Shown piece after piece: positions 1,996-32,000 of a stretch of DNA of 32,000 bases (the first letter of the stretch is position 1; each line of letters starts with the position of its first letter). Position numbers and translations under genes: made by a program. Under the pieces are notes generated by a model that had not been told where the DNA came from, did no database searches, and saw only the letters and a program-made list of their open reading frames with translations. The stretch lies in NCBI RefSeq assembly GCF_000007145.1, contig NC_003902.1, positions 607,436 through 639,435 of the forward strand, given 5' to 3'. The stretch comes from Xanthomonas campestris pv. campestris str. ATCC 33913. GTDB lineage: Bacteria > Pseudomonadota > Gammaproteobacteria > Xanthomonadales > Xanthomonadaceae.

Positions 1996-2562
1996 GAGCG
2001 GCTAACAAAACGTAGCGAGCAGTCGTCAGGTGGGTGCGGACGGCGCGGAGGAACCGGAGTGTACTTGGGTACATGCCGATTCCGAGCACCGGCCGTGCCC
2101 GCCTGGCGGCTGCGCAGTCGTTTTGATAGCTGCTCTAAGCGTGTAACCGAGTGCGACGCAAGGCTGGCAGCGGCGCCGGTCATCGGGCCGATGAAGGCAC
2201 GGCCCGGGCGGAGCTGCCGCCAGCGCCTGGATCGTCACGCGAATGGGCGAAACCATCGGGCAGGCCGTCCATCCGCTTCGCTGCCTGCGCAGTGCTGCGC
2301 GTTGCCGAACGTCAGTCGTCGCATCACGCCATCCCCGGCACGATGAGAAGTGCGAACGATGCACGTTCTGAAGACGACGAAGGATCACAGGCATCCAACA
2401 ACGCACTTCTCATTCACGAGTTTGCACGTCGCAGTGGCGCGTGGTCATGGTGTCGCGTTTTCAGTATGAGGCGAGGTCGTTGCCAGATTCGAGCGGCGCG
2501 CCGAACGGTTCTACTCTTGCAAGCTGCGTTGACGAACATAATCCGGAACCGATCGCATATTG

Positions 2563-2609: not shown

Positions 2610-3016
2610 TAATGCGCACCTGTCTTCTGCTGTGGCGACCGTTGCCGAGCACGGCTGTCCGACGATCTGGATTCGCCGATCCATTTACTCGACTTGTTCA
2701 ACGGCAACGACGCTTTCGGCGAGGCGTCCATTCGCTGTTTGTTGCAACGGCTGTCGCGCAGGAGCCAGCCTTGCCATCACCCCGGCTGCGTCTTGCAGTC
2801 ACGGCCATCCATGACCCTGCGATTCAAGCAAGACGCCGCAGCGCACGTGCGCCTCGGGGCGTTCGTCGATAACCCACCATCGCATGCCGGCACTGCCCTT
2901 GCCGACGGCAGGATCCGTCTCGCCATGACGGCGGGATGATCCGTGCCACCTCATCGGCCAGGACACGCCTGCCGGTTTTGCGCAGCTGCCTGGAACATCC
3001 AGATGAGATCAACCAT

Positions 3017-6000
3017 ATGAATCGCGAAAAAGTCTTGGCATTACGCACTTGCACGAACAACATGTCCGATCATTGCGGGCTGATCTGGCCACTGTCCGGC
3101 ATCGTCGAATGTCGGCATTGGCAACCCAGCATCAAACAGGAAAACGGCTTGACCGGCTTGTTGTGGGGACAGGGCACCAATGCGCATCTGAACATGCATG
3201 CCGACGCGCATTGGGTCGTCTGCATGGTGGACACCGCCGACATCATCTGGCTGGGCGAAGAGGGAATGATCAAGTTCCCCAGGGCGGAGGTGGTCTACGC
3301 CGGCAACCGTGCAGGCGCGATGAGCTGCATCGCCGCCGGCATCGAGCAACATTCGCCACCCAAGCCCGAGCCGCCTGCAGACAGTGTGATTGCTGCGGAG
3401 TTCACTCCCAAGGCGGCGCATGCGCAATTCACGGCGCCCATCGTTGAAAGCGGTGCGCATTCCACCGCGCCACTGCCATCGCCGCCTAATGGCATCGGCC
3501 CACAAGCCGCGCAGCCGTCAAATGCGATCCTGCGTACCCGCGAAATCGCCACCTATGGCAGCACGCTCACTGGCGCCGATCAGAGTCAGCTGATCGCAGG
3601 CTATGGAAGTACCGAGACCGCGGGGAACGGCAGCGAGTTGATCGCCGGCTACGGCAGCACCGGCGTGGCCGGATCCGACAGCACCATCGTTGCCGGCTAT
3701 GGCAGCTCTCAAACGGCCGGAGGCGGAAGCACGCTGACTGCCGGGTATGGCAGCACACAGACCGCCCGCAATGGCAGCGAGCTGACGGCCGGTTACGGCA
3801 GTACGGAAACCGCCGGTGCAGACAGCTCGCTGATCGCAGGCTACGGCAGCACGCAAACCTCCGGCGGCGACAGCTCGTTGACTGCCGGCTATGGCAGTAC
3901 CCAAACCGCGCAGAACGGCAGCGACCTCACCGCCGGCTACGGCAGCACCAGCACGGCGGGCACCGATAGCTCGCTGATCGCCGGCTACGGCAGCACCCAG
4001 ACCTCGGGCGGAGAGAGCTCGCTCACTGCCGGCTATGGCAGCACGCAGACGGCGCAGGACGGCAGCGACCTCACCGCCGGCTATGGCAGCACAGGCACCG
4101 CAGGTGCAGATAGCTCCCTGATTGCTGGTTATGGCAGTACGCAGACATCCGGCAACGACAGCTCGCTGACGGCGGGCTACGGCAGCACCCAAACCGCCCG
4201 TACCGGCAGCGACCTCACTGCGGGTTACGGCAGCACCTCCACCGCTGGTGCGGACAGCACGCTGATCGCCGGTTATGGCAGCACCCAGACTTCCGGCGGG
4301 GACAGTTCGCTCACCGCCGGCTACGGCAGCACCCAAACCGCGCGCAAGGGTAGCGACCTCACGACGGGGTACGGCAGCACCTCGACCGCCGGCGCGGACA
4401 GCACCTTGATCGCCGGCTACGGCAGCACGCAGACCTCGGGTAGCGAGAGTTCGCTCACGGCTGGCTATGGCAGTACGCAGACCGCACGCAAGGGCAGTGA
4501 CCTCACCGCCGGCTACGGCAGCACCTCGACCGCCGGTGCGGACAGCACCTTGATCGCCGGCTACGGCAGCACGCAGACCTCCGGTGGCGAGAGTTCGCTC
4601 ACCGCTGGCTATGGCAGTACGCAGACCGCACGCAAGGGCAGCGACCTAACCGCCGGTTACGGCAGTACCTCGACGGCTGGCGGTGACAGCACGCTGGTCG
4701 CGGGCTACGGCAGCACCCAGACCTCCGGCGGCGACAGTTCGCTGACCGCCGGCTACGGAAGCACGCAGACCGCACGTAGCGGCAGCGATCTGACCACCGG
4801 CTATGGCAGCACCTCGACGGCTGGTGGCGAGAGCACGCTGATTGCCGGTTATGGCAGCACGCAGACATCGGGCAATGCCAGTTCGCTCACTGCCGGCTAC
4901 GGCAGCACGCAGACAGCACGCAGCGGCAGCGATCTGACCACCGGCTATGGCAGCACCTCCACTGCTGGCGCCGACAGCACCTTGATTGCCGGTTACGGAA
5001 GTACCCAGACCTCCGGCGGGGAAAGTTCGCTCACTGCAGGCTATGGCAGCACGCAGACCGCGCGCAAAGGCAGCGACCTGACCACCGGCTACGGCAGCAC
5101 CTCCACCGCCGGTGCCGACAGCACCTTGATTGCCGGTTACGGCAGCACCCAGACCGCTGGTGGCGAGAGCTCGCTGACGGCGGGCTATGGCAGCACGCAG
5201 ACCGCGCGTAAGGGCAGTGACCTCACCGCCGGTTACGGCAGCACCTCCACCGCAGGTTCGGACAGTTCGCTGATCGCCGGCTATGGCAGCACGCAGACGG
5301 CCGGCTTCAAAAGCATCCTGACCACCGGCTACGGCAGCACCCAGACCGCGCAAGAGGGCAGCCTGCTCACGGCCGGCTATGGCAGTTCCTCAACGGCCGG
5401 TTCGGACAGTTCGCTGATCGCCGGCTATGGCAGCACGCAGACGGCCGGCTTCAAAAGCATCCTCACCGCAGGCTATGGCAGCACCCAGACCGCGCAAGAG
5501 CGCAGCACCCTCACCACCGGTTACGGCAGTACATCGACGGCAGGGCATGACAGTACGCTGATCGCCGGTTATGGCAGCACGCAGACGGCCGGCTACAAGA
5601 GCATTCTCACCACCGGCTATGGCAGCACCCAGACCGCGCAGGAAAGCAGTTCGCTGATCGCCGGCTACGGCAGTTCCTCCATGGCCGGCCCGGACAGCTC
5701 GCTGATCGCCGGTTATGGCAGTACCCAGACTGCCGGTTACGACAGCTTCCTGACGGCCGGTTACGGCAGTACCCAGACCGCGCAGAGCAGCAGCTGGCTA
5801 ATCACCGGCTACGGCAGTACGTCCACCGCCAGCTTCCAGAGTTCGTTGATTGCCGGCTATGGCAGCACGCAGACGGCCGGCTACGAAAGTACCTTGACCG
5901 CCGGCTACGGCAGCACCCAGACGGCGCAGGAAATCAGTTGGCTTACCACCGGCTATGGCAGCACGCAAACGGCCGGCCATGGAAGCATCCTGACCGCCGG

Positions 6001-7018
6001 TTACGGCAGCAATTCCACCGCAGGTTACGAAAGTACCCTGATCGCGGGCTACGGCAGCACCCAGACCGCAGGTTACGAAAGCACCCTGACCGCCGGTTAC
6101 GGCAGCACGCTGACTGCGCTGGAAAACAGTTCGCTTACCGCCGGCTACGGCAGTACCGAAATCGCCGGGTTCTCCAGCACGCTAATCGCCGGCTATGGCA
6201 GCAGCCAGACCGCCGGTGGCGACAGCACCCTGACGGCAGGCTACGGCAGCACGCTGATGGCTCTGGACAACAGCACTCTGACGGCAGGCTACGGCAGCAC
6301 CGAGACCGCAGGGCAGGACAGCTCGCTGATCGCAGGTTATGGCAGCAACTTGACCAGTGGCGTGCGCAGCTATCTGACGGCCGGCTATGGCAGCAACCAG
6401 ATTGCAAGCTACGGAAGCTCGTTGATCGCCGGGCACGAAAGCACCCAGATCGCCGGCCATCGCAGCATGCTGATTGCGGGCAAGCTGAGTTCGCAGACGG
6501 CCGGTTCGCGCAGCACGCTGATCGCCGGCAGGGGCAGCATCCAGACTGCAGGCGATCGCAGCAAGTTGATCGCCGGCGCCGACAGCACCCAGATCGCCGG
6601 CGATCGCAGCAAGTTGTTGGCCGGCAGTAACAGCTTCCTCACCGCAGGGGACCGCAGCAAACTCACCGCAGGTGACGATTGCACGCTGATGGCAGGCGAC
6701 CGCAGCAAGTTGACCGCCGGAAAGAACAGCATCCTGACCGCGGGCGCCAACAGCCGGTTGATCGGTAGCCTGGGCTCCACCCTCACCGGTGGCGAAGACT
6801 CGGTACTGATCTTCCGATGCTGGGACGGCAAGCGCTACACCAACATCATTGCCAAGACCGGAGAGGAGGGCGTGGAGGCCGACATCGCCTATCAGGTCGA
6901 CGACGACAAGAACGTGGTCGAAAAATTCGACGATCCGTTCGACACCATCGTGCTTCGGCATGATGGCGGGCCCGCTTCTGCGGCCGATCACGCGCTGGTG
7001 GAGCAGGCGCCCAATTGA
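3017..7018 (+). CDS. inaX: Ice nucleation protein (InaX/InaZ family), 1333 codons
   Basis: The N-terminus 'MNREKVLALRTCTNNMSDHCGLIWP..NGLTGLLWG' matches the conserved Ina N-domain as I remember it for InaZ/InaX. It is followed by 68 tandem 16-residue 'AGYGSTxTAxxxSxLT' repeats and the C-terminal cap 'IFRCWDGKRYTNIIAKTGEEGVEADIAYQVDD'. The start is placed at ATG 3017 where family similarity begins. The track ORF starts 27 codons earlier at 2936. Confidence 0.93.
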   Translation: MNREKVLALRTCTNNMSDHCGLIWPLSGIVECRHWQPSIKQENGLTGLLWGQGTNAHLNMHADAHWVVCMVDTADIIWLGEEGMIKFPRAEVVYAGNRAGAMSCIAAGIEQHSPPKPEPPADSVIAAEFTPKAAHAQFTAPIVESGAHSTAPLPSPPNGIGPQAAQPSNAILRTREIATYGSTLTGADQSQLIAGYGSTETAGNGSELIAGYGSTGVAGSDSTIVAGYGSSQTAGGGSTLTAGYGSTQTARNGSELTAGYGSTETAGADSSLIAGYGSTQTSGGDSSLTAGYGSTQTAQNGSDLTAGYGSTSTAGTDSSLIAGYGSTQTSGGESSLTAGYGSTQTAQDGSDLTAGYGSTGTAGADSSLIAGYGSTQTSGNDSSLTAGYGSTQTARTGSDLTAGYGSTSTAGADSTLIAGYGSTQTSGGDSSLTAGYGSTQTARKGSDLTTGYGSTSTAGADSTLIAGYGSTQTSGSESSLTAGYGSTQTARKGSDLTAGYGSTSTAGADSTLIAGYGSTQTSGGESSLTAGYGSTQTARKGSDLTAGYGSTSTAGGDSTLVAGYGSTQTSGGDSSLTAGYGSTQTARSGSDLTTGYGSTSTAGGESTLIAGYGSTQTSGNASSLTAGYGSTQTARSGSDLTTGYGSTSTAGADSTLIAGYGSTQTSGGESSLTAGYGSTQTARKGSDLTTGYGSTSTAGADSTLIAGYGSTQTAGGESSLTAGYGSTQTARKGSDLTAGYGSTSTAGSDSSLIAGYGSTQTAGFKSILTTGYGSTQTAQEGSLLTAGYGSSSTAGSDSSLIAGYGSTQTAGFKSILTAGYGSTQTAQERSTLTTGYGSTSTAGHDSTLIAGYGSTQTAGYKSILTTGYGSTQTAQESSSLIAGYGSSSMAGPDSSLIAGYGSTQTAGYDSFLTAGYGSTQTAQSSSWLITGYGSTSTASFQSSLIAGYGSTQTAGYESTLTAGYGSTQTAQEISWLTTGYGSTQTAGHGSILTAGYGSNSTAGYESTLIAGYGSTQTAGYESTLTAGYGSTLTALENSSLTAGYGSTEIAGFSSTLIAGYGSSQTAGGDSTLTAGYGSTLMALDNSTLTAGYGSTETAGQDSSLIAGYGSNLTSGVRSYLTAGYGSNQIASYGSSLIAGHESTQIAGHRSMLIAGKLSSQTAGSRSTLIAGRGSIQTAGDRSKLIAGADSTQIAGDRSKLLAGSNSFLTAGDRSKLTAGDDCTLMAGDRSKLTAGKNSILTAGANSRLIGSLGSTLTGGEDSVLIFRCWDGKRYTNIIAKTGEEGVEADIAYQVDDDKNVVEKFDDPFDTIVLRHDGGPASAADHALVEQAPN
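3545..6808 (+). repeat. Ina central repeat domain: 68 x 48-nt units with 144-nt (3-unit) higher-order periodicity
   Basis: Counted by hand from the translation. Units 1-36 are near-identical 48-residue triplets. Units 37-60 carry aromatic or His residues after the 'TAG'. Units 61-68 lose GYGS and become Arg/Lys-rich ('AGDRSKL'). Confidence 0.95.
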
Positions 7019-11824: not shown

Positions 11825-12745
11825 ATGCCGCTCGTTCGTGCCCGCCATCTCTGGCTGTTGCTCGCTCCCGCCGCGCTTGCGGCGGCGTGGTGGCAGGCGC
11901 GTCCGCAAACAGCGGGCGTCGCGCCCGCGGCCGTCGTGGAGACCGCGGCTGCGCACGTCGCACCCACAGCCGGCCAGCCGCACGCGGTGCCCGAGCGCAG
12001 CGCTGCGTTGCAGCTGGCGCGCGGCACCGCAGGCGAGCCGCCGCAGGATCTCTACCGCTACGCGCAGCAACTGCAGCAACAAGTGCGCGCCGGTGATGCG
12101 CAGGCCGGTTGGCGCTTGAGCCGGGTCTACGACTACTGCGCCCCCTATGCGGTGAGCCCGGCTGGCTACGCGGCCGACAGCGCCTGGATCGCCAGCCAAC
12201 CCGCGCCCGGCGTGGCCGCCATGCACGCCGCACGCGAACGCGTGGCGCAGCGCTGCGCCGGCTTTGCGCCCAGCGACGGGCTGAGCCCGCGCGTGGTGGC
12301 CCAGCAACGTCAGGCCGCTGCGCGTGCCGGCAGCCTCGCTGCCGAAGCGGCCATGCTTGCGTTGGGCGAACCCTTGCAGACCACGCCCGGCTACAAGCGC
12401 GCGCTGGTTCAGCGCGTGCTGGCCTCGCGCGACCCGGAAGCGTATCTGGCGCTGGCGCCGGCGATGGGCGCGCGCGCCAGTGGCGATGACAGCCTGGACG
12501 GCTATGTGGCGGGCGATCAGTTCGCCGAGCTGGCCTGGCAGGTCGCCGCCTGCAGGCTGGGTCTGGATTGCAGCGCGCAAAGCACGCTGGTCACCAGTTA
12601 TTGCGCCAACGCGGGCATCTGCTCGCGCGATAGCGCACAGGATTTCGTGTCGTTCGTATTCGATGCCGCGGTGCCGCGGCAGGGAGCAGACAAGGTGGAT
12701 GAGATGGTCGATACACTCGTAACGCGGTCGGAGACACAGTCATGA
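11825..12745 (+). CDS. Hypothetical exported Cys-containing protein
   Basis: ATG 11825 gives a signal/anchor-like N-terminus, '[23 protein letters not shown]'. GC3 is high throughout. There is a C-terminal Cys cluster ('[26 protein letters not shown]'). No family recognised. Confidence 0.6.
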
Positions 12746-13107
12746 ACTATCGTCGGTTGGCGCACGGCGCCAAGTTCTGGTTCTGGGTGGCGCTGTTCGT
12801 GGCGTATTCGGCCGCAGCGGTGGGCATCGTGATGATCGACACCGCCGATCACCGCTACCAGCCGCTGTCGGTCAAGCGCATCACTGTCGGTGCCGACGCG
12901 CAGCTGCGCCAGCACGGCGCCAGCCAGGTGGCCGCGGTGTATCGCGCCAGCAGCGGCATGCCGTTCGCCTCGCTGCCGGCCGGCGCCACGTTCCAGGTGG
13001 TGTGGCCGGATGGCTCCACCGAAACCATGACCGTGGTCGACCCATCCTCGCCCAGCGGCGCGGTGCCGGTACCCGGCAGCCAGCAACCGGCAGCAAAGCG
13101 CCGTTGA
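12742..13107 (+). CDS. Hypothetical membrane-anchored small protein
   Basis: ATGA overlap with the upstream gene (12742-12745). N-terminal TM 'FWFWVALFVAYSAAAVGIVMI'. High GC3. Confidence 0.6.
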   Translation: MNYRRLAHGAKFWFWVALFVAYSAAAVGIVMIDTADHRYQPLSVKRITVGADAQLRQHGASQVAAVYRASSGMPFASLPAGATFQVVWPDGSTETMTVVDPSSPSGAVPVPGSQQPAAKRR

Positions 13108-13119
13108 GTGCCGCGGATG

Positions 13120-13630
13120 TGCAGTGATGCGCGATTGCGCGTGCGAGCGGCCAATGGCCGCGCACGCGATGCGCTCCACACGTCGAAGCCGGTCACACAG
13201 TTTTGCGCGCAGGTGTAACGCGCAGATCGTTCGCCACGCAGCACTGATGCATGGCCGCGCACGCGATGCGCTCCACACGTCGAAGCCGGTCACACAGTTT
13301 TGCGCGCAGGTGTAACGCGCAGATCGTTCGCCACGCAGCACTGATGCATGGTCGCGCACGCGAAGCGCTCCATGCGATGAAGCCGGTCACGCAGTTCGGC
13401 GCGCAAGCATGACGCGCAGGTGGTTCGCCACGCAGTACTGACGCATGGCCACGCACGCGATGCGCTCCATGCGATGAAGCCGGTCACGCAGTTCGGCGCG
13501 CAGGCGTGACGCGTAGGTGGTTCGCCACGCAGTACTGACGCATGGCCACGCACGCGAAGCGCTCCATGCGATGAAGCCGGTCGCACGGTTCGGCGCATAG
13601 ACGTGACGCGTAAGTCGTTCGCCAGATAAC
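13120..13630. repeat. 97-bp tandem repeat, about 5 copies
   Basis: The landmark 'ATGG(C/T)C(G/A)CGCACGCGA' recurs at 13154, 13251, 13348, 13445 and 13542, a period of exactly 97. Copies 1 and 2 are identical by eye; copies 3-5 diverge. Each unit holds small palindromes such as TGCGCGcaggtgtaaCGCGCA. Confidence 0.9.
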
Positions 13631-13740: not shown

Positions 13741-15108
<1,368 letters not shown>

Positions 15109-15548
15109 GGGAATAGGGAGTCGGGAATGGGGAATGGGTAGATGCGGGCATCAGGCGGCTCCACGTCTGCGTAGGGCGTTCATCAGTGCAGTGAGCTTGG
15201 CGAACACCAGGTCGACCTGACGGCGGACGCTCTGGTCATCTTCACTGCGGCTGTAACCCAGTCGGGCGGCGATCTGGACTTGCGTGTCCAGTTCGGAAAG
15301 CGATCCACGTGCGATGGATAGAAAACGGGAGTAATCGGGAGTGGAGCGTCGTGCCGCACCTTCGGCGATGTTCGACGGGATGCTGACGGCTGCGCGGCGC
15401 AATTGCGCAGTCAGGCCGTAACGCTCCTGGTCGGGAAATACCTCGGTCAGTCGGTAGATCATTTCGACGAGCTCCATGGAATCACGCCAGGCGTCCAGAC
15501 GTTCGTGAGGCCGCTGTGCCGATTCCCGATTCTCCACTCCCGATTCCC
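15109..15548. mobile_element. Putative heptamer-terminated insertion cassette carrying a four-helix-bundle gene, between accB and accC
   Basis: Left arm 15109-15136 is GGGAATA GGGAGTC GGGAATG GGGAATG followed by GGTAGA. Right arm 15521-15548 is GATTCCC GATTCTC CACTCCC GATTCCC, preceded by TGCC, so the arms are inverted. The same termini recur at 23005-23120 without a gene. Confidence 0.35.
15151..15537 (-). CDS. Four-helix-bundle protein (23S rRNA intervening-sequence protein / Avd-like family)
   Basis: 'HERLDAWRDSMELVEMIYRLTEVFPDQERYGLTAQLRRAAVSIPSNIAEGAARRSTPDYSRFLSIARGSLSELDTQVQIA' matches the family pattern (..IY.LT..FP..E.Y.L..Q.RRAA.SI..NIAEG..R....). The GTG start at 15537 lies inside the right heptamer arm. 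Confidence 0.85.
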   Translation of the reverse strand: MENRESAQRPHERLDAWRDSMELVEMIYRLTEVFPDQERYGLTAQLRRAAVSIPSNIAEGAARRSTPDYSRFLSIARGSLSELDTQVQIAARLGYSRSEDDQSVRRQVDLVFAKLTALMNALRRRGAA

Positions 15549-23004: not shown

Positions 23005-24774
<1,770 letters not shown>

Positions 24775-24807
24775 TCCAGCCCCACCGGTTGTTGCCTCAA
24801 AAAAGGA

Positions 24808-24831
24808 CCCCGCCGAAAGGCGGGGTTTTTT
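24808..24831 (+). terminator. groESL rho-independent terminator
   Basis: CCCCGCC-gaaa-GGCGGGG followed by TTTTTT. Confidence 0.9.
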
Positions 24832-24936
24832 GTCACAACACGTTTGCGTAGATGTGCGCGCGCGTGTTGGCGAAGTTTTGCTTCACTCGGCATACTCTGA
24901 CGAGAGTTTCGACGTATTTTCATAAAGGCATTCTCC

Positions 24937-27840
24937 ATGTCCACTCTGCCAGCGCCATCGAGCGGCGGTGTCTATCCCAGTGGTCAGCCTGGGTCGCATC
25001 GGTACTCACATCACCAGGGCAAGTTCTTCGCTCATTGGTTGACGTTGCGTAGTCGTGACGAATCGGCAGTTGCACGTGCCTTGTCTGCTGCGCGCGTCGA
25101 TATGAACCCGCATCAGGTGGATGCCGCTTTATTCGCGCTCAAATCGCCTGTGGAGGCGGGCGTGTTGCTTGCCGACGAGGTTGGACTCGGCAAGACCATC
25201 GAGGCCGGCCTGGTGCTGGCCCAGCATTGGGCACAACGTCGCCGCCGTCTGCTGTTGATCGTCCCTGCAACGCTGCGCAAGCAGTGGACACAGGAGCTCG
25301 AAGAGAAGTTTCAACTACCGTCCGTCATTCTCGAGAGCAAATCGTTCAATGCTTTTCGTCAGCTCGACGTAAGCAATCCTTTTCAGATCGAAGACGCGAT
25401 CATCGTGACGTCCTATGAGTTTGCCGCAAGCAAGCAAAAAGAGCTCGCTGCGGTCAGCTGGGATCTGGTCGTGCTGGATGAGGCACACAAGCTGCGCAAC
25501 TTGTACAAGGGCAAGAGTGCGTCAAAGCGTGCTGTCGCCTTGAACGAAGCGCTGCGTGGCAGGCGAAAGGTCCTGCTGACCGCCACGCCGTTCCAGAATT
25601 CGTTGATGGAGTTGTATGGGCTAGTGTCCTTCATCAGCGACGAGTTCTTTGGTAGTCAGAAGGCGTTTCAGATGCAGTACGCCTCAGGTCGGAGCTCCGA
25701 AGCTCGTCTTAACGACCTGAGGCATCGGCTCAAGCCGATTTGCCACCGTACCTTGCGTCGTCAGGTCCAGGCCGAAGGTGGCATTAATTTCACCAAGCGC
25801 TTTTCCATCACTCAGGACTTCACGCCTTCCGACGAGGAGCTTGAGCTCTACGACAAGGTTTCGGCTTACCTGCAGGATCCTTCCATCCTTGCCATCAAGC
25901 CGACAGCCCGGCATCTGGTGACATTGGTGGTACGCAAGATTCTCGCCTCCTCGACGTTCGCCATCGCCGATACGCTCGAGACGATCATCGGTCGACTCGA
26001 GTCCAACCAGGCGCTCACCGCCAAGCAGATCGAAGATTTCGAGACCGTCGACGAACTCAGTGATGAGCTGGATTCCGATGGAATGGAAAGGCAGGGCGAT
26101 GCGCCGGATAGCGATGCCTTGCAGGCAGAGCTGTTCTGCCGCGCGCAGGAAATCGATCGTCTGCGCGGTTACCGTGACCTGGCCAAGCAGATTCAAAGCA
26201 ATCGCAAGGGCGACGCGCTATTACTGGTCCTCGGGCGAGCGCTTGCGATGGCCGAAAAGCTCGGCGGGCAACGTAAGGCAGTGATCTTTACCGAGTCGCG
26301 GCGCACACAGGAGTACTTGCGTGTCCTGCTCGAAGAACATGGCTATGCCGGACGAACCGTCCTGCTCAATGGAAGCAACGACGACGTCGATTCCAGGCAG
26401 CTGTATGCCGACTGGCTGGAGCGTCACGCCGGCTCTACGCTTGTTTCAGGTTCCAGGACGGCAGACATGAAGGCCGCAGTGGTCGAAGCTTTTCGCGATC
26501 ATCGTGATGTTCTCATCACAACCGAAGCAGGCGGCGAGGGCATCAACCTGCAATTCTGCTCGTTATTGGTCAACTACGATCTGCCATGGAATCCGCAGCG
26601 TGTGGAGCAGCGGATCGGGCGTATCCATCGCTATGGTCAGAAGAGCGATGTGGTCGTGGTGAATTTCGTCAATCGCAAGAATCGTGCGGATCAATTGGTG
26701 TTTGAGCTCCTGGAAAAGAAGTTCAAATTGTTTGACGGTGTATTTGGTGCCAGCGATGAGATATTGGGTGCGATCGAATCCGGTGTGGACATCGAGCAGC
26801 GGATCCTGCGCATCTATCAGAACTGTCGCGACGCCGCGCAGATCGAGTCGGAGTTCGCTACCTTGCAGGCTGAGCTGGACGAGAGCATCGGCCGGCGCGA
26901 GGAAAGTGCGCGGCGCATGCTGCTGGAGCATTTTGACGAGGATGTCGTACGCAACTTGCGCTCACGTCGCGCAGGCATGCTTCATAAGATCAATCAGTAT
27001 GAAAGTCAGTTTCTACACCTGATCGCTGCCGAACGTCCTAAAGCGCGCATCAGCGACAAGCTGGTTAAACTGGAGGAAGGCGATTACGCCGTCAGCTGGC
27101 CGCCGGCCGAAGAAGCCAACGCCGGGCTGTTGAGGCCGGACAAGGGGTTGGGGGAAAGGCTTTGCCGCCAGGCCAAAGAACGTCCGACTCTACCTGGTAC
27201 GCTTCATTTCGATTACGCCGCTGTGGATGCGCAGCGTGCCGATGTGCGCCAGTGGCTGGGAAGCAGAGGGCAGCTGCGTGTAGCGTTGGTCACCATCCAG
27301 ACCGCGGAGGAAGTGCTGGAAGAGCTGGTGTGCAGTGCGCTGTGCAGTGATGGGCGTGTCGTGCCCGACGAGACCGCTGCGCGTCTGATGGAAATTCCTG
27401 CCCGCTTTGTACCACGGCACCGCGTCGCCGAAGATCGTGCGCTTCCCGCTTTTGAAGCGGCAGTTGAGCGCGTGCTGGCAGAGGCAAACAAGCGTAACGA
27501 GAGTTGGTTTTTGCAGGAGTCCGAGCGCCTTGATCGTTGGGGCGAGGATCAAAGACTATTGCTGCAGCAGAGTATCGACGAATTCGACCTGCAGGTGCGC
27601 GATGCCAAACGCACCTTGCGTCAGCTCGAGACCCTGGAGCAGAAAGCCCAGCTCAAACGCGAGATCAAGCGGATCGAGCAGCAGCGTGATGATGCCATGC
27701 TGGATTTTTTTGAAGGTAGAAAGCGCATCGAGCGTAGCCAGGACGTGATGCTGGAGCGGGTCGAAAATGCGTTGCGCACGCAGCACACCGTACAGGTGCT
27801 GTTTGATGTGGAGTGGACCTTGGAGCATCCCGAACCATGA
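24937..27840 (+). CDS. SNF2-family helicase with ~350-residue C-terminal coiled-coil extension
   Basis: Motif I 'ADEVGLGKTIEAG' (GLGKT 25183-25197), motif II 'DEAHKLRN' (DEAH 25477-25488), 'LLTATPFQNSLMELYGL', 'AVIFTESRRT', 'TEAGGEGINLQ', 'NYDLPWNPQRVEQRIGRIHRYGQ'. GC and GC3 are lower than in the flanking core genes. Confidence 0.9.
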   Translation: MSTLPAPSSGGVYPSGQPGSHRYSHHQGKFFAHWLTLRSRDESAVARALSAARVDMNPHQVDAALFALKSPVEAGVLLADEVGLGKTIEAGLVLAQHWAQRRRRLLLIVPATLRKQWTQELEEKFQLPSVILESKSFNAFRQLDVSNPFQIEDAIIVTSYEFAASKQKELAAVSWDLVVLDEAHKLRNLYKGKSASKRAVALNEALRGRRKVLLTATPFQNSLMELYGLVSFISDEFFGSQKAFQMQYASGRSSEARLNDLRHRLKPICHRTLRRQVQAEGGINFTKRFSITQDFTPSDEELELYDKVSAYLQDPSILAIKPTARHLVTLVVRKILASSTFAIADTLETIIGRLESNQALTAKQIEDFETVDELSDELDSDGMERQGDAPDSDALQAELFCRAQEIDRLRGYRDLAKQIQSNRKGDALLLVLGRALAMAEKLGGQRKAVIFTESRRTQEYLRVLLEEHGYAGRTVLLNGSNDDVDSRQLYADWLERHAGSTLVSGSRTADMKAAVVEAFRDHRDVLITTEAGGEGINLQFCSLLVNYDLPWNPQRVEQRIGRIHRYGQKSDVVVVNFVNRKNRADQLVFELLEKKFKLFDGVFGASDEILGAIESGVDIEQRILRIYQNCRDAAQIESEFATLQAELDESIGRREESARRMLLEHFDEDVVRNLRSRRAGMLHKINQYESQFLHLIAAERPKARISDKLVKLEEGDYAVSWPPAEEANAGLLRPDKGLGERLCRQAKERPTLPGTLHFDYAAVDAQRADVRQWLGSRGQLRVALVTIQTAEEVLEELVCSALCSDGRVVPDETAARLMEIPARFVPRHRVAEDRALPAFEAAVERVLAEANKRNESWFLQESERLDRWGEDQRLLLQQSIDEFDLQVRDAKRTLRQLETLEQKAQLKREIKRIEQQRDDAMLDFFEGRKRIERSQDVMLERVENALRTQHTVQVLFDVEWTLEHPEP

Positions 27841-29153
27841 GTAATTCACGTGAATTGGGGGATTTGCTCGAGCAGATTCGGCTGGGCGAAGACTCGCAGC
27901 TGGAATTCAAGCGCGTCGTGTTCGAAAACGACAAAATCAAAGGCCCGAACGGGGATAGCCTTAGCCAGGAAATCGCGGCATTCGCTAATGCCATCGGTGG
28001 GCGCCTGATCCTGGGTGTGGACGACAAGACCCGCGACGTGGTCGGGATTCCATTGGATCGATTGGACGCGGTCAGCATCTGGCTCGAGAACTGCGTGCAT
28101 GACCGCATCAAGCCCGAGCCCACCATCTATTTGCGGCGCAGGCTGGTCCCTGATCGCTCCGGTACCGAGCATGCCGTTTTGGTGATCGATATACCGCGTT
28201 CGCTCTATGTCCATCTCGCCCCAGGTGGTTATTTCCGCCGTCAGGGCAGTTCCAAGCACGAACTGCCGCCAAACGAATTGTTGCGTCTCATGCAGTCGCG
28301 GCAGCGCGCCGGAACTCTGGGGTTCGATGAGATGCCCGTGCTGGGCTGTACGCAGGCGAACTTTGATGCTGCGCTGTACGGTCGCTTTCTCGGCACAACC
28401 GATGAACCTGAGGAACTGCGCCTACGCAAGCTGAAGCTGCTGGTTCCGGGAGAGCCTGGCGAGGAGTGGGCCAGCGTCGCAGGCGTCTTGATGGCGACGG
28501 CCACGCCAAGCGATTGGCTGCCGCAGGCCTATGTGCAGTGCGTGCACTATGCCGGTACCGAGAAGACTGCCCAGGAGCAACTGGATGCGCAGGATATCCA
28601 GGGTCCGCTGGATCAGCAGATTCGTCAGGCTGCCGCCTTCGTACTGCGAGGCATGCGCACTGCGGCACGCAAGAATTTGGGCCGGATCGACGTGCCCCAG
28701 TTCGATCCAGAGGCTGTATTCGAGGCCATCGCCAACGCCGGTGCGCATCGCGACTACTCGATCAGCGGGGCGCCTGTGCAGGTGCATCTGTTCACCGACC
28801 GGCTGGAGATCACCTCGCCCGGCGCGTTGCCTAACTCCCAATCGGTGGAGTCGATCGCCCTGCGCACCGCCACCCGCAATGAACTGTTGACCAACCTACT
28901 GGCGCGTTGTCCGGTCGAGATGGAAGGCGTCGGCCGGAGCCGCGTGATGGAGAAGCGTGGCGAGGGCGTGCCGCAGATACTTAATCGCAGCGAGCGCCTA
29001 TCTGGGCATCGGCCAAAGTTCGAGTTGCTGGGTGAAAATGCATTACGTGTGACGTTGTACGCAGCCGATCCTGAAACGAGCCCGCTATTGAACGAAGCCG
29101 GTAGAGGCAGTGTGGGCCTCCCCCATGCGGGCTTTGCCCGCGACGATGGCTGA
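27837..29153 (+). CDS. AlbA_2 (Schlafen-like) domain protein with HATPase_c_4-like C-terminal module ('RecG-like' putative regulator family)
   Basis: ATG 27837 overlaps the helicase stop (ATGA). Contains 'EDSQLEFKRV', 'AAFANAIGGRLILGVDD', and later 'FEAIANAGAHRDYS', 'LEITSPGALP', 'TRNELLTNLLAR'. Confidence 0.8.
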   Translation: MSNSRELGDLLEQIRLGEDSQLEFKRVVFENDKIKGPNGDSLSQEIAAFANAIGGRLILGVDDKTRDVVGIPLDRLDAVSIWLENCVHDRIKPEPTIYLRRRLVPDRSGTEHAVLVIDIPRSLYVHLAPGGYFRRQGSSKHELPPNELLRLMQSRQRAGTLGFDEMPVLGCTQANFDAALYGRFLGTTDEPEELRLRKLKLLVPGEPGEEWASVAGVLMATATPSDWLPQAYVQCVHYAGTEKTAQEQLDAQDIQGPLDQQIRQAAAFVLRGMRTAARKNLGRIDVPQFDPEAVFEAIANAGAHRDYSISGAPVQVHLFTDRLEITSPGALPNSQSVESIALRTATRNELLTNLLARCPVEMEGVGRSRVMEKRGEGVPQILNRSERLSGHRPKFELLGENALRVTLYAADPETSPLLNEAGRGSVGLPHAGFARDDG

Positions 29154-29191
29154 AGAATTGATCTACTGCTGATAGAAGTAGGTGGAGTCGC

Positions 29192-29212
29192 TAGCTCTCG
29201 TACCAAGAGCTA
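29192..29212 (+). promoter_or_regulatory. Perfect 7-bp-stem hairpin (TAGCTCT-cgtacca-AGAGCTA) in the AT-rich spacer before the PHP-ATPase gene
   Basis: Read directly from the sequence. No T-run follows. The function (operator, processing site or weak terminator) is unknown. Confidence 0.25.
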
Positions 29213-29281
29213 TCCCTGCGGCCATAGGCAGGTATAAGTTGAAATACGAAACAACTGACACAAAAGCCAAGGAGAGCCGAT

Positions 29282-32000
29282 ATGACAGACTTCCCAGGAG
29301 CGCGCTGGTGGCGTTGCGATTTCCACAATCACACGCCAGCATCCAGCGACTACCGCGGCAACACCGCATACTCGGATCGTGATTGGCTTCTGGACTACAT
29401 GCGTGCCGGGATCGACTGCGTTGCGATAACCGATCACAATTGTGGCGACCGCATTGACGCGTTGCGCGGCGCTTTGGCCGTTCTTGCCGCCCAACAGCCG
29501 GCTGATCCAGCTTATCGCCCATTGGTACTTTTGCCCGGCGTAGAAATTACTACTTCTGAAGGTCTGCACCTACTGGCGATCTTCGACGAGGCTGAGCCTG
29601 CGGGCACCATCAATCGTGTATTGATCCGCATCGATTGCCCGAAGCTTGGGAAGAATCACGACAAGCAGTGCGGCAAGAATGCATTAGACACGATCGAGGC
29701 AATTCGGAAGGAAGGGGGAATTGTTGTCGCCGCCCATGTAGACAGCAACAACGGTCTGTACGAGACACAGGCGACCAGTTCCGCCAGTGGTGTGCTGTGT
29801 TATAAAACACGCTTGAAATCAAGAACACTCGTCCAGATCCTGCCCGGAATAGATGCGGCCCAAGTGGTGAACGAATGCAACCCCGCAATCGCTGGCTATC
29901 TGCCTGCGCTACGCGAGCGCGTCGCCATTGTCGCTGGTTCGGATGCGCACATGCCTGCTGAAGCTGGTTCGGCTAGCACCTGGGTCAAGATGAGTCGTCC
30001 TAGCTTGCGGGCATTGCGCATGGCGCTGGTTGATCATAAAGGCAGCGTCCAGCGTTTCGATTCAACACTGCCGAACCCTAACCGCACACCGCCACTGTGG
30101 CTGAGCGGTCTTAGTGCTGGCCCGCTGCAGCTGCGCCAGAATCCGCAGCAGGGTCAGCTAAACGTCGAGTTCAACCCATGGTTCAACAGCATCATCGGTG
30201 GACGTGGCACTGGTAAGTCGTCGTTGGTGGAACTGCTGAGAATCGTGCTTCGTCGAGATGGCGATCTGGCAGGCGAGCGTAGTGGTCCACTAGCGCAGAT
30301 CCATGATGTCTTCAGGAATTTCGCGCTTGCCAATGACAAGGACGGCCGTGGCGCCCTGCGTTCCGATACCAAGATCCAGGTCAAACTGAATAAGGATGGG
30401 CAAGCGATGGCCGTGGCATGGGACAAGCGTTCCGGCCTGACAACGATCGAAGAACATACTGGTAGCGACTGGTCGCCGGTACCGGAACAAATTGATGACG
30501 ACTATGTGCGCAATCGCTTCCCGGTGACGGTACTGAGCCAGAAGCAGATCTATGCGCTTGCTGAACAGCGCGGCTACCTACTCGAGTTGCTCGACCGGCA
30601 ACCGCAGGTTGACAAAGCACAATGGCAGCGTCGATTCGACGCGATGCGCCAACGCTTCCTTGGCCTTCGTGCACAAGCGCGGCAACTGGCGCCCGACTTG
30701 AGCCAGCGGCCTGCGCTTGAAGCCGAACTGCGTGACACCGAGCGCAAGCTCAAAGCGCTGGAACTGTCGCACCATGCAAGCAGCTTGCAGGCCTATCAGC
30801 GTGCGCGGCGCCAACTGAGCGCGCAGCAGAACCTGCTCGCGCAGTGGCAGAGCGACCTCGAAAGCATGCGACCAGTGGTTGAGGATTCCGACCTGTTTCG
30901 GCGCATCGAGTTCGAAGGATTCGATCAGGCCACTGGCGATGAAGCCGAGTTCATAGGATTGGTCGAGCAGGTTGAGTCGGAGCTACGCGGCCACTACGAG
31001 CAGATTCGGACTGCCGTGTCGCAGATCGAGGCTACCCTGGCGACGACACCTGCCCGTTTCGCCGCCTTACGCTTGCAGGTTGCGATTACGCAAGCGCAGG
31101 CCGACTATCAGGCGCTGCTGGAGAGACTGAAGTCTCAGGGAGTGGAATCGCCCGATCAATACGCGGCACTGGTCGCCCGGAGGGACGAACTGCAGAAGGA
31201 GCTAAAGCGTCTGGATGCAGGTCTTCATGAACAGGCAGGCTACATACAGCAAGCAGAGCAGGTGCTTGAGGAATTGACGCAGCTGCGCCATGAGATTAGC
31301 GAAAGCCGGAAAGATTTCATCACAGAGATCAACCAGCGGGCAGGGAATAGAATTCGTCTGAGTCTGTCGCGTTTCGGTACGCCGGAAATTGCCGAAACTC
31401 GCTTCCGTGAGTTGATCAAACAACCCACAGCGTTCGCCGAGGATATCTACGAAGTGCTGGAGGGCGGCGCCAGACGCGGTGTGCTGCACCGGTTGTTCAG
31501 CGCATCTGTCGCGGACTTCGAGAACGAGCTCTCTGCTTTGAAGAAAGAGATCCTACGCATGCGGCAGGAACCTGCCAAGCATGAGGACCTGCTCGGCGAA
31601 AAAGTTAACAAACGACTACGAACGCACATCGAAACCAGACTTGGTGAGCTGGAGATTGATGAATTGCTGACGTGGTTTCCGGATGACGGTCTCGATCTTA
31701 TGTTCACGCAGAGCGGAAAATCGCGATCAGTGGACGGAGCTTCCGCAGGCCAGAAAAGCGCTGCTGTGTTGTCTCTACTGCTGGCGTTTGGCGGAGAGCC
31801 GTTGATCGTGGATCAGCCTGAAGACGATCTGGACAACGCAATGGTGATGGATCTGGTCGTCAGCCAGATACGCGCCAACAAGACGCATCGGCAGTTGATC
31901 GTTGTTACCCATAATCCAAATGTGGTGGTCAACGGGGACGCTGAATGGGTAATACCAATGCATTTCCATAAAGGTCAAATCGATGTGGATGCGACTGGCT
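29282..32000 (+). CDS. PHP-domain phosphoesterase fused to SMC/Rad50/SbcC-type coiled-coil ABC ATPase (3' end outside window; absent from supplied ORF track)
   Basis: SD AAGGAGAG (29269-29276) precedes ATG 29282. I translated 906 codons by hand to 31999 with no stop. PHP motifs: 'CDFHNHT', 'ITDHN', 'GVEITT', 'AAHVD', 'GSDAH'. Walker A 'GGRGTGKSS' (30197-30220), a ~480-residue Q/E/R/L-rich segment, signature-like 'SAGQKSA' (31742-31759), Walker B 'LIVDQPEDDLD' (31802-31834), and 'VVTHNPN'. Confidence 0.85.
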   Translation, partial: MTDFPGARWWRCDFHNHTPASSDYRGNTAYSDRDWLLDYMRAGIDCVAITDHNCGDRIDALRGALAVLAAQQPADPAYRPLVLLPGVEITTSEGLHLLAIFDEAEPAGTINRVLIRIDCPKLGKNHDKQCGKNALDTIEAIRKEGGIVVAAHVDSNNGLYETQATSSASGVLCYKTRLKSRTLVQILPGIDAAQVVNECNPAIAGYLPALRERVAIVAGSDAHMPAEAGSASTWVKMSRPSLRALRMALVDHKGSVQRFDSTLPNPNRTPPLWLSGLSAGPLQLRQNPQQGQLNVEFNPWFNSIIGGRGTGKSSLVELLRIVLRRDGDLAGERSGPLAQIHDVFRNFALANDKDGRGALRSDTKIQVKLNKDGQAMAVAWDKRSGLTTIEEHTGSDWSPVPEQIDDDYVRNRFPVTVLSQKQIYALAEQRGYLLELLDRQPQVDKAQWQRRFDAMRQRFLGLRAQARQLAPDLSQRPALEAELRDTERKLKALELSHHASSLQAYQRARRQLSAQQNLLAQWQSDLESMRPVVEDSDLFRRIEFEGFDQATGDEAEFIGLVEQVESELRGHYEQIRTAVSQIEATLATTPARFAALRLQVAITQAQADYQALLERLKSQGVESPDQYAALVARRDELQKELKRLDAGLHEQAGYIQQAEQVLEELTQLRHEISESRKDFITEINQRAGNRIRLSLSRFGTPEIAETRFRELIKQPTAFAEDIYEVLEGGARRGVLHRLFSASVADFENELSALKKEILRMRQEPAKHEDLLGEKVNKRLRTHIETRLGELEIDELLTWFPDDGLDLMFTQSGKSRSVDGASAGQKSAAVLSLLLAFGGEPLIVDQPEDDLDNAMVMDLVVSQIRANKTHRQLIVVTHNPNVVVNGDAEWVIPMHFHKGQIDVDATG

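Follow-up and report, generated by a model that had tools for sequence, protein, structure and literature searches.

A variable islet beside groESL in Xanthomonas campestris carries a RapA-like SNF2 helicase, a prokaryotic Schlafen and a Ppl-family nuclease

Introduction

Ppl is reportedly a single-gene defence system of Gao et al. 2020, and ietAS, a further system that is met below, is reportedly from the same work. Here, we analyze a 32,000-nucleotide stretch of the chromosome of Xanthomonas campestris pv. campestris ATCC 33913 (hereafter the window; contig NC_003902.1, positions 607,436 to 639,435 of the forward strand), in which a ppl gene is preceded by a gene for an SNF2 helicase and a gene for a prokaryotic Schlafen, the three forming a same-strand block directly downstream of groESL. 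An initial annotation of the sequence had put this block forward as a candidate undescribed defence system. We find that the seemingly new block can be broken down into a DrmD/RapA-like helicase, a Schlafen of bacterial type and Ppl, and does not look like a new type of system. These separately described defence modules are likely to be independent layers sharing one islet, and not a single three-gene machine; they are possibly co-transcribed from a promoter upstream of the helicase gene.

One publication lists ppl among the single-gene systems that it credits to its reference 20 (PMC13223576), and Ppl has been described as a single T7-restricting gene that combines an ATPase with a PHP domain (PMC11482910). 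According to a 2026 review, E. coli Ppl is a 3′-5′ exonuclease on single-stranded DNA whose inhibition is relieved by phage-driven depletion of nucleoside triphosphates (NTPs), and it is also triggered by 3′-OH ends from phage homing endonucleases (PMC12904381). Prokaryotic Schlafens (pSlfns), whose catalytic motif has been defined as E-x4-(E/D)-x-K, were classified by Taboada et al. 2025, and among 5,930 of them histidine-kinase-like fusions were commonest (34%, plus 19% that have a helix-turn-helix (HTH) domain as well; bioRxiv 10.1101/2025.07.24.666596). In at least 1,017 taxa, proteins made of a Schlafen domain, a minimal histidine kinase and a winged HTH (wHTH) are tightly linked to BREX or BREX-related loci; they have been read as backup ribonuclease (RNase) effectors (NAR 2026, PMC12839542). 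Lastly, defence genes can be embedded in multi-gene systems ('guilt by embedding'), and the hosts named in the searchable text of the preprint by Payne et al. 2024 are Hma, BREX, DISARM and type I restriction-modification (R-M); by term search of that text, type III R-M is not named as a host, the sole 'type III' being DRT type III (bioRxiv 10.1101/2024.01.29.577857).

Results

Three same-strand genes follow the groEL terminator

The groEL stop codon lies at 24774 of the window. From its terminator onwards, the locus comprises the following features (window coordinates):

24806–24831 (approximate), plus strand: intrinsic terminator of groEL, left junction of the island; stem-loop GGACCCCGCC-GAAA-GGCGGGGT followed by a T-run
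24832–24936, plus strand: 105-nt leader 5′ of gene 1, 49.5% GC, putative promoter region
24937–27840, plus strand: gene 1, RapA-like/DrmD-like SNF2 helicase, 967 aa (Pfam, PADLOC, NCBIfam)
27837–29153, plus strand: gene 2, prokaryotic Schlafen with a GHKL/histidine-kinase-like fusion, 438 aa (Pfam, AlphaFold2 (AF2), Foldseek)
27888–27911, plus strand: predicted Schlafen catalytic motif in gene 2 (sequence and homologue conservation)
29086–29087, no strand: recombination breakpoint (blastn of the window and locus L011 against locus L018)
29154–29281, plus strand: 128-nt spacer between gene 2 and ppl, 46.9% GC (sequence)
29282–32000, plus strand, running off the window end: gene 3, Ppl/TrlF-family PHP exonuclease with an ABC ATPase (PADLOC, NCBIfam)

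The start codon of gene 2 overlaps the stop codon of gene 1 in the tetranucleotide ATGA (27837–27840). The window holds 906 of the 942 codons of gene 3, whose stop codon lies about 110 nt beyond the window end (full length taken from locus L001). The terminator, the three same-strand genes, their coordinates, the overlap and the spacer are all as initially annotated, and Pfam bore out the domain calls (SNF2 helicase; AlbA_2/Schlafen plus HATPase_c_4; a weak PHP plus SMC/AAA). A consensus scan of the block for promoters and terminators gave the counts expected from shuffled sequence and is uninformative on transcription units; in the 105-nt leader and the 128-nt spacer it returned nothing above chance.

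Gene 3 is Ppl, a known single-gene defence of the TrlF family

The closest correspondence to a described system was found for gene 3, which is Ppl. It matches the PADLOC Ppl model PDLC02208 (E = 2e-136) over profile positions 4–856 of 894 and, with 531 bits, exceeds the cut-off of 350 of the NCBIfam TrlF model NF045780 over positions 2–943 of 944; NCBI already applies the TrlF-family name to the identical protein. Pfam recognizes PHP_C (weak) and SMC_N/AAA_23/AAA_21. Along the protein, the PHP part (approximately aa 6–250) is followed by a Walker A motif (aa 306–314), the signature SAGQKS (aa 821–826), Walker B (aa 841–851) and an H-loop (aa 877–878). Both the PHP motifs (DFHNHTP, AITDHN, PGVEI, GSDAH) and the ATPase motifs (GGRGTGKSS, SAGQKS, IVDQPEDDLD, THNPN) are kept down to a homologue of 27% identity. 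Sequence searches of the PDB with Ppl, as a single sequence or as a four-sequence profile, returned just generic SMC, Rad50 and ABC matches, and a literature search for 'TrlF' yielded only unrelated spectroscopy or biomedical papers. By analogy with E. coli Ppl, gene 3 would act alone, triggered by phage-made 3′-OH DNA ends together with a fall in NTP.

Gene 2 is a prokaryotic Schlafen of the HisKinase class

Gene 2 is a pSlfn of the HisKinase class, as it combines the Schlafen fold, the catalytic motif and a fused GHKL domain. The idea of an undescribed system therefore failed on two of its three genes, gene 3 being Ppl by the PADLOC and TrlF models and gene 2 falling into a catalogued Schlafen-HisKinase class (PMC12839542; bioRxiv 10.1101/2025.07.24.666596).

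Pfam places SLFN_AlbA_2 (E = 9e-16) and HATPase_c_4 (E = 1e-20) in the protein, with the Schlafen lobe at aa 18–143 and HATPase_c_4 at aa 311–407. The stretch E18-DSQL-E23-F-K25 fits the E-x4-(E/D)-x-K motif; across 60 homologues, E18, D19 and K25 are invariant and E23 is conserved in at least 90%, and the motif is found in 45 of 48 locus-derived Schlafen homologues. The AF2 model (predicted local distance difference test score (pLDDT) of 88.2) was compared with solved structures using Foldseek. Over its full length it matches an uncharacterized bacterial protein (3LMM). The matches of the N-terminal half are nuclease domains of human and rodent Schlafens (SLFN14/5/11/13) and the SAMD9 tRNase; those of the C-terminal half are GHKL kinases, namely PDK and histidine kinases. 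PDB sequence matches are likewise to Schlafens (SLFN14, SLFN8 and SLFN5). A C-terminal wHTH is unlikely in gene 2, because just 30 residues follow the kinase-like domain. An identical protein, labeled 'ATP-binding protein [X. campestris pv. campestris]' by NCBI, is encoded on many complete Xanthomonas chromosomes. Judging from the fold and the intact E-x4-E-x-K motif, gene 2 is predicted to encode a latent RNase, probably one acting on tRNA, that would abort infection.

Gene 1 is an orthologue of helicases that head type III R-M operons

Gene 1 comprises SNF2-rel_dom and Helicase_C domains (Pfam), with a helicase core at approximately aa 47–620 and, at aa 700–967, an alpha+beta domain at the C terminus that has a long helical hairpin. 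Its best hidden Markov models are those of DrmD (PADLOC PDLC02619, E = 3e-195); the models of HmaA (E = 1e-57) and BrxH (E = 6e-71) match it much less well. On the NCBIfam models it stays below the cut-offs, scoring 640 bits for DISARM_DrmD_b (NF038318; cut-off 950), 259 for DrmD (NF038317; cut-off 610) and 168 bits for RapA (NF003426; cut-off 576). Walker A (G83–T87), the DEAH box (181–184) and motif VI (Q558–Q568) are invariant among 72 homologues. RapA is the best PDB fold of the AF2 model (pLDDT 78.9), over the full length; the model has just two short helices N-terminal to the helicase core, and the N-terminal Tudor domains of RapA are absent. Enterobacteriaceae, Pseudomonas, Methylococcales, Planctomycetes and further groups are rich in full-length homologues, at about 50% identity.

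Several existing labels were considered for this gene or the locus and rejected. DISARM class 1, a PADLOC call that needs all five components, does not apply, as the DrmD equivalog scores are too low and DrmA, DrmB (DUF1998), DrmC (PLD) and DrmMI are not found within 10 kb on either side. Hma (HmaABC) and BREX type 3 were set aside given the weak HmaA/BrxH matches and flanks that hold neither HmaB/HmaC nor PglX/PglZ/BrxC. A housekeeping RapA is at odds with the score below cut-off, with the missing Tudor-like domains that bind RNA polymerase and with the absence of the gene from sister strains. Type III R-M as a label for the window fails as well, since neither Mod nor Res is present in the window or in L001.

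Helicases of this family are nonetheless the hallmark partners of type III Mod and Res. In a scan of a species-representative genome collection, at least 575 relatives were found, of which the best 80 loci were analyzed. These loci span many phyla, and the window helicase is 44–95% identical to theirs over at least 94% of its length. Among the 50 loci with at least 7 kb of downstream sequence, Mod and/or Res follow the helicase in 45 and both do so in 42; PADLOC identified them as MTase_III and REase_III, and in two loci (L029 and L059) Mod was recognized by tblastn/blastn (frameshifts or errors in calling open reading frames). Gene 1 is orthologous over its full length to these helicases. In 30 of 74 loci, the gene directly 3′ of the helicase is a Schlafen gene, which frequently overlaps the stop codon of the helicase, and the slot between helicase and Mod is highly variable, its occupants including IetAS (Enterobacteriaceae), Gabija-like genes, AAA_21+DUF4276, Abi_C, a MORC-like ATPase, DUF6119 and GmrSD_N+HEPN. 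In E. coli, 74 of 5,426 complete genomes have the helicase-headed operon, under generic PGAP names only. In loci L021–L025 and L188 (Enterobacteriaceae/E. coli), an SNF2-IetA-IetS-Mod-Res operon headed by the helicase family lies inside a CP4-57-like island, so that ietAS is embedded here in a type III R-M operon. No name for the SNF2-headed type III arrangement was found in PADLOC v2, NCBIfam r20 or the literature searched, which is not proof of absence.

By this kinship, gene 1 would be a RapA-like SNF2 translocase on double-stranded DNA from a family that normally heads SNF2-(cargo)-type III Mod-Res operons. The exclusion of type III R-M in the initial annotation is thus not borne out for the helicase family, nor for the same-site variants with Mod/Res genes described below, although the window itself lacks Mod and Res and therefore methylation-based self/non-self discrimination.

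The block is a horizontally exchanged accessory islet

The block is an accessory islet that is exchanged horizontally in the variable groEL-to-TonB-receptor locus of Xanthomonas, as strains with an identical GroEL lack it. An exact look-up of the GroEL protein recovered ten distinct contexts, and in four of these with 100% identical GroEL (L012, L016, L019 and L020) the site is empty: groEL is followed by a 660-bp spacer, an intact 295-aa hydrolase gene and the TonB receptor gene, with both the trio and the XopX genes absent. Relative to L012, the left junction is identical through the T-run of the terminator and unrelated beyond, and the right junction to the empty site lies about 10 nt before the hydrolase start codon. 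Because the hydrolase alleles of occupied and empty strains are 85.7% identical, compared to 97.8% for the left flank, the imported DNA extends further to the right. Neither direct nor inverted repeats of at least 8 nt were found at the island edges, nor any tRNA in the window, so that the islet bears no transposon or integrase signature; the lack of boundary repeats fits acquisition via homologous recombination through the conserved flanks and not transposition. The 660-bp spacer of the empty site (L012:11641–12300) contains a second, degenerate copy of the groEL terminator along with about 200 nt of following sequence, which could be the scar of an earlier exchange at a hotspot.

In line with such an origin, the islet is compositionally foreign, as had been claimed. 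After the groEL terminator, GC content falls to 0.577, compared to 0.667 in the remaining window, and GC at third codon positions falls from about 0.85 to 0.63–0.71, with 0.675, 0.711 and 0.628 in genes 1, 2 and 3 versus 0.865 in groES, 0.839 in groEL and 0.921 in the endonuclease I gene. The shift in codon choice that had been noted by eye stood only in part. AAA (24–42% of lysine codons in the SNF2 and ppl genes vs 2% in groEL) and TTT (53% of phenylalanine codons in the SNF2 gene vs 0% in groEL) are clearly enriched, the increase in ATT is confined to ppl, and GAA, of which groEL also makes heavy use, is not distinctive for the block.

The suggestion that further components might follow past the window end was not borne out. 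After the remainder of gene 3 come, in order, a broken yghX-like gene for a dienelactone hydrolase, two genes for XopX type III effectors on the opposite strand and the gene of a TonB-dependent receptor; beyond gene 3, neither an integrase or tRNA nor a methyltransferase or additional defence gene was found. Within 10 kb on both flanks, the genes are groESL, endonuclease I, cutA, dsbD, the yghX-like gene, the XopX genes and the TonB receptor gene. In this region beyond the window (L001:14312–19685), the hydrolase is split in island strains, with 158 (+136) aa compared to 295 aa at empty sites, and the two tandem XopX genes are confined to island strains.

Same-site variants differ in Mod, Res and Ppl

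The same site is occupied differently in the sister X. campestris strain L018, where the order is SNF2-Schlafen-Mod-Res. By blastn, the window and L018 share 98.7% identity across 9.1 kb, as far as window position 29086; this breakpoint falls 67 nt short of the stop codon of gene 2. Past it, Mod and Res stand in place of Ppl in L018, and homology resumes 19 nt before the yghX-like gene. PADLOC identifies the genes that follow the same SNF2-Schlafen pair in sister loci as MTase_III (E = 4e-190) and REase_III (E = 2e-284). In Silanimonas, another genus of the Xanthomonadales, the order is groES-groEL-SNF2-Schlafen-Mod-Ppl-Res, with Mod and Ppl overlapping by 4 nt, and identities to the Xanthomonas proteins are 76.8% for SNF2, 77.5% for Mod, 77.8% for Res, 70.8% for Schlafen and 55.5% for Ppl. 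A gammaproteobacterial metagenome-assembled genome (L029) reads SNF2-Schlafen-Mod-Ppl-Schlafen′-Res, while X. melonis and Xanthomonas sp. NCPPB 3582 have the trio without Mod/Res directly after groESL.

Upstream, the Silanimonas island is bordered by groEL, which is complete in L190 and truncated by the end of the contig in L189; downstream, a second groEL copy follows that is only partial (L189:2–760 and 12643–13584; L190:1212–2795 and 14678–14821). This second copy covers aa 223–536 at 86% identity, so that roughly 940 bp from the 3′ part of groEL are directly repeated on the two sides of the island, an arrangement that may hint at the way in which islands target this conserved gene.

The three genes of the window are intact, and selection on each of them is purifying. 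Relative to X. melonis, the ratio of nonsynonymous to synonymous divergence (dN/dS) is 0.061 for SNF2, 0.051 for Schlafen and 0.091 for Ppl. Synonymous divergence (dS) between X. campestris and X. melonis is 1.25 for Ppl, as opposed to 0.43 and 0.58 for the neighbouring genes; likewise, the Ppl of X. melonis (L028:14345–17170) and of NCPPB 3582 (L192:9001–11826) is 80–82% identical to window positions 29282–32000, compared to 95% for the adjacent SNF2 and Schlafen. These contrasts suggest that Ppl has undergone allele replacement, or independent exchange, inside the islet. In other X. campestris strains, Ppl is interrupted by an insertion sequence (IS; DDE_Tnp_1 transposase), which splits it into 340 + 611 aa in L007, L008 and L013 and into 296 + 662 aa in L015; lying at two positions and in two orientations, these insertions are independent inactivations of Ppl.

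That SNF2, Mod and Res are equally diverged argues for SNF2-Schlafen-Mod-(Ppl)-Res as the older unit, of which the window form would be a reduced derivative. Mod and Res would then have been lost either through deletion or in a recombination event whose breakpoint lies within the 3′ end of gene 2.

Outside the Xanthomonadales, Ppl keeps other company

As a unit of three genes, the trio is confined to Xanthomonas, contrary to the co-occurrence anticipated for a single system, and Ppl adjoins the helicase family in just 3 of the 80 helicase-anchored loci. In 49 Ppl-anchored metagenomic loci, Ppl is often alone or nested in other systems, for example as BrxC-PglX-[Ppl-Schlafen]-PglZ-BrxL, HmaA-[Ppl]-HmaB-HmaC, HmaB-[Ppl-Schlafen]-HmaC or Mod-x-Ppl-Res. 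A Schlafen gene directly follows Ppl in 10 of 40 Ppl-anchored loci, and these Ppl-linked Schlafens form a clade apart from the SNF2-linked ones, to which the window Schlafen belongs. Metagenomic contigs L120, L118, L146, L122 and L136 carry Ppl, with or without a Schlafen, nested in BREX type 1 (between pglX and pglZ), in Hma and in type III systems (between Mod and Res).

Other features of the window

Elsewhere, the window encodes an ice-nucleation protein of 1,360 aa, to which the Pfam repeat Ice_nucleation matches 49 times (2936–7018, plus strand). Its sole Rfam match is the Xanthomonas small RNA sX9 (2000–2074, minus strand; RF02228, 93.6 bits). In the accB/accC interval (approximately 15150–15540, minus strand; L011:2016–2402) lies a small gene of the 23S_rRNA_IVP family, which, depending on the strain, is called with a length of 103 to 144 aa.

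Discussion

An accessory defence islet beside groESL, as initially proposed, is thus well founded, while its content is best described as Ppl, a HisKinase-class Schlafen and the helicase of a type III R-M operon. We regard it as probable that the three are independent layers, and a number of observations count against this view. The score of gene 3 against the strict NCBIfam equivalog Ppl_antiphage (NF042955) is 562 bits where the cut-off is 1000, which places it in a distant clade of the Ppl family. Of the seven pSlfns tested by Taboada et al., the two that protected were DUF262 and Ig-like fusions and not of the HisKinase class (bioRxiv 10.1101/2025.07.24.666596), and no protection or cleavage data for HisKinase-class Schlafens were found in the published literature searched. 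The independence of the genes is deduced from their context and the order of events is a deduction as well, with loss of Mod/Res or swapping-in of Ppl as possible routes. Lastly, the tight same-strand layout (the ATGA overlap, the 128-nt spacer, no predicted terminator between the genes and, in Silanimonas, the 4-nt overlap of Mod and Ppl) would fit a cooperative unit, and the trio devoid of Mod/Res persists under purifying selection in at least three Xanthomonas lineages.

The last two points lead to a reading in which the trio is one integrated system, with SNF2 scanning or remodeling foreign DNA, the Schlafen-HisKinase protein sensing or regulating and Ppl serving as nuclease effector, all without methylation self-marking. 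Besides the layout and the retention of the trio in X. campestris, X. melonis and NCPPB 3582 at dN/dS of 0.05–0.09, this would account for Ppl staying in the helicase operon within the Xanthomonadales across 55–64% Ppl divergence and for the lack of Mod/Res in 4 of 16 SNF2-Schlafen pairs versus 1 of 34 Schlafen-less helicases (Fisher p = 0.03, with no correction for phylogeny). Even so, we judge it unlikely. In E. coli, Ppl functions on its own (PMC11482910, PMC12904381), and it is found alone or in BREX, Hma and type III systems, the helicase family pairs with Mod/Res and not with Ppl outside the Xanthomonadales, and Ppl-linked and SNF2-linked Schlafens are different clades. Moreover, the synonymous divergence of Ppl, about three times that of its neighbours, suggests independent exchange, and L018 has the same SNF2-Schlafen pair with Mod/Res instead of Ppl.

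A broader proposal, which we offer tentatively and hold to be doubtful, is that the RapA-like SNF2 helicase defines an unnamed class of type III R-M 'supersystem' found in many phyla (SNF2, cargo slot, Mod, Res), which in the Xanthomonadales is anchored at groEL and stably joined by Schlafen and Ppl, and in which SNF2, Schlafen and Ppl outlive Mod/Res as a cooperating, methylation-independent unit. Were this so, the translocase would expose or deliver DNA ends to the Ppl exonuclease, with the Schlafen RNase as an abortive backup.

Alternatively, Ppl could be the only active gene, the helicase and Schlafen being functionless remnants of a type III R-M operon that has shed Mod/Res. The normal partner of the helicase is indeed missing here, given that 45 of 50 loci of the family have it, and the IS insertions in Ppl of some strains show that decay of the locus is possible. 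Genes 1 and 2 are nevertheless full length with all catalytic motifs intact, they have been kept at dN/dS of 0.06 and 0.05 over a dS of 0.43–0.58 relative to X. melonis, which likewise lacks Mod/Res, and three more SNF2-Schlafen loci (L032, L035 and L060) do without Mod/Res, all of which makes mere remnants very improbable. That genes 1 and 2 serve outside defence, as a RapA-like transcription recycling factor and an HTH/ATP-binding regulator beside Ppl, is barely credible: no solved structure is closer over the full length than that of RapA, and database labels of gene 2 homologues read 'predicted HTH transcriptional regulator' or 'ATP-binding protein', but the RapA model gives 168 bits where 576 are needed and the N-terminal Tudor domains are absent, the genes are polymorphic in presence within one species and foreign in composition, type III Mod/Res and other defence cargo accompany the family almost without exception, and gene 2 has a Schlafen fold with a conserved nuclease motif.

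Independent layers thus remain our preferred explanation, and the site offers a natural form of 'cassette genetics': it occurs empty, with SNF2-Schlafen-Mod-Res, with SNF2-Schlafen-Ppl and with an IS-broken Ppl, and in another genus with SNF2-Schlafen-Mod-Ppl-Res. The variants at groEL amount to an isogenic-like set for testing whether embedded defence genes cooperate with their host system. They also draw attention to a very widespread helicase partner of type III R-M that carries no name and occurs in many phyla. The recurrence of Ppl in methylation-based systems hints at a synergy between DNA ends made by restriction and an end-sensing exonuclease.

Comparison with known systems

Gene 3 resembles Ppl in its N-terminal PHP domain with HxH, DH, E, H and DxH motifs and in its ABC ATPase, which has a long helical insert besides the Walker A, signature, Walker B and H-loop motifs; unlike Ppl standing alone, it and its relatives sit in a helicase/type III R-M operon. 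Gene 2 shares with the HisKinase-class pSlfns the Schlafen fold, the E-x4-E-x-K motif, the GHKL-type fusion and a location in or near methylation-based defence operons, and differs from the BREX-linked Schlafen-kinase-wHTH proteins in that its partner is an SNF2 helicase and not BREX. Gene 1 has the SNF2 core of DrmD, BrxHII, HmaA and RapA, and its family is, like DrmD, BrxHII and HmaA, genetically tied to a DNA methyltransferase. It lacks, however, the nuclease domain (NOV_C) of HmaA and the N-terminal Tudor domains of RapA, and in contrast to all four, the usual partners of its family are canonical type III Mod and Res. The kinship with type III R-M (EcoP15I-like Mod/Res) is visible in the sister loci, where, at an identical chromosomal position, Mod/Res come directly after the same pair of SNF2 and Schlafen. 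Finally, Ppl with or without Schlafen, IetAS, Gabija-like genes and other cargo nested in multi-gene methylation-based systems resemble the embedded defence genes of Payne et al., with the difference that the host here is an SNF2-headed type III R-M operon, of which, in the window, Mod and Res are gone and the cargo has been kept.

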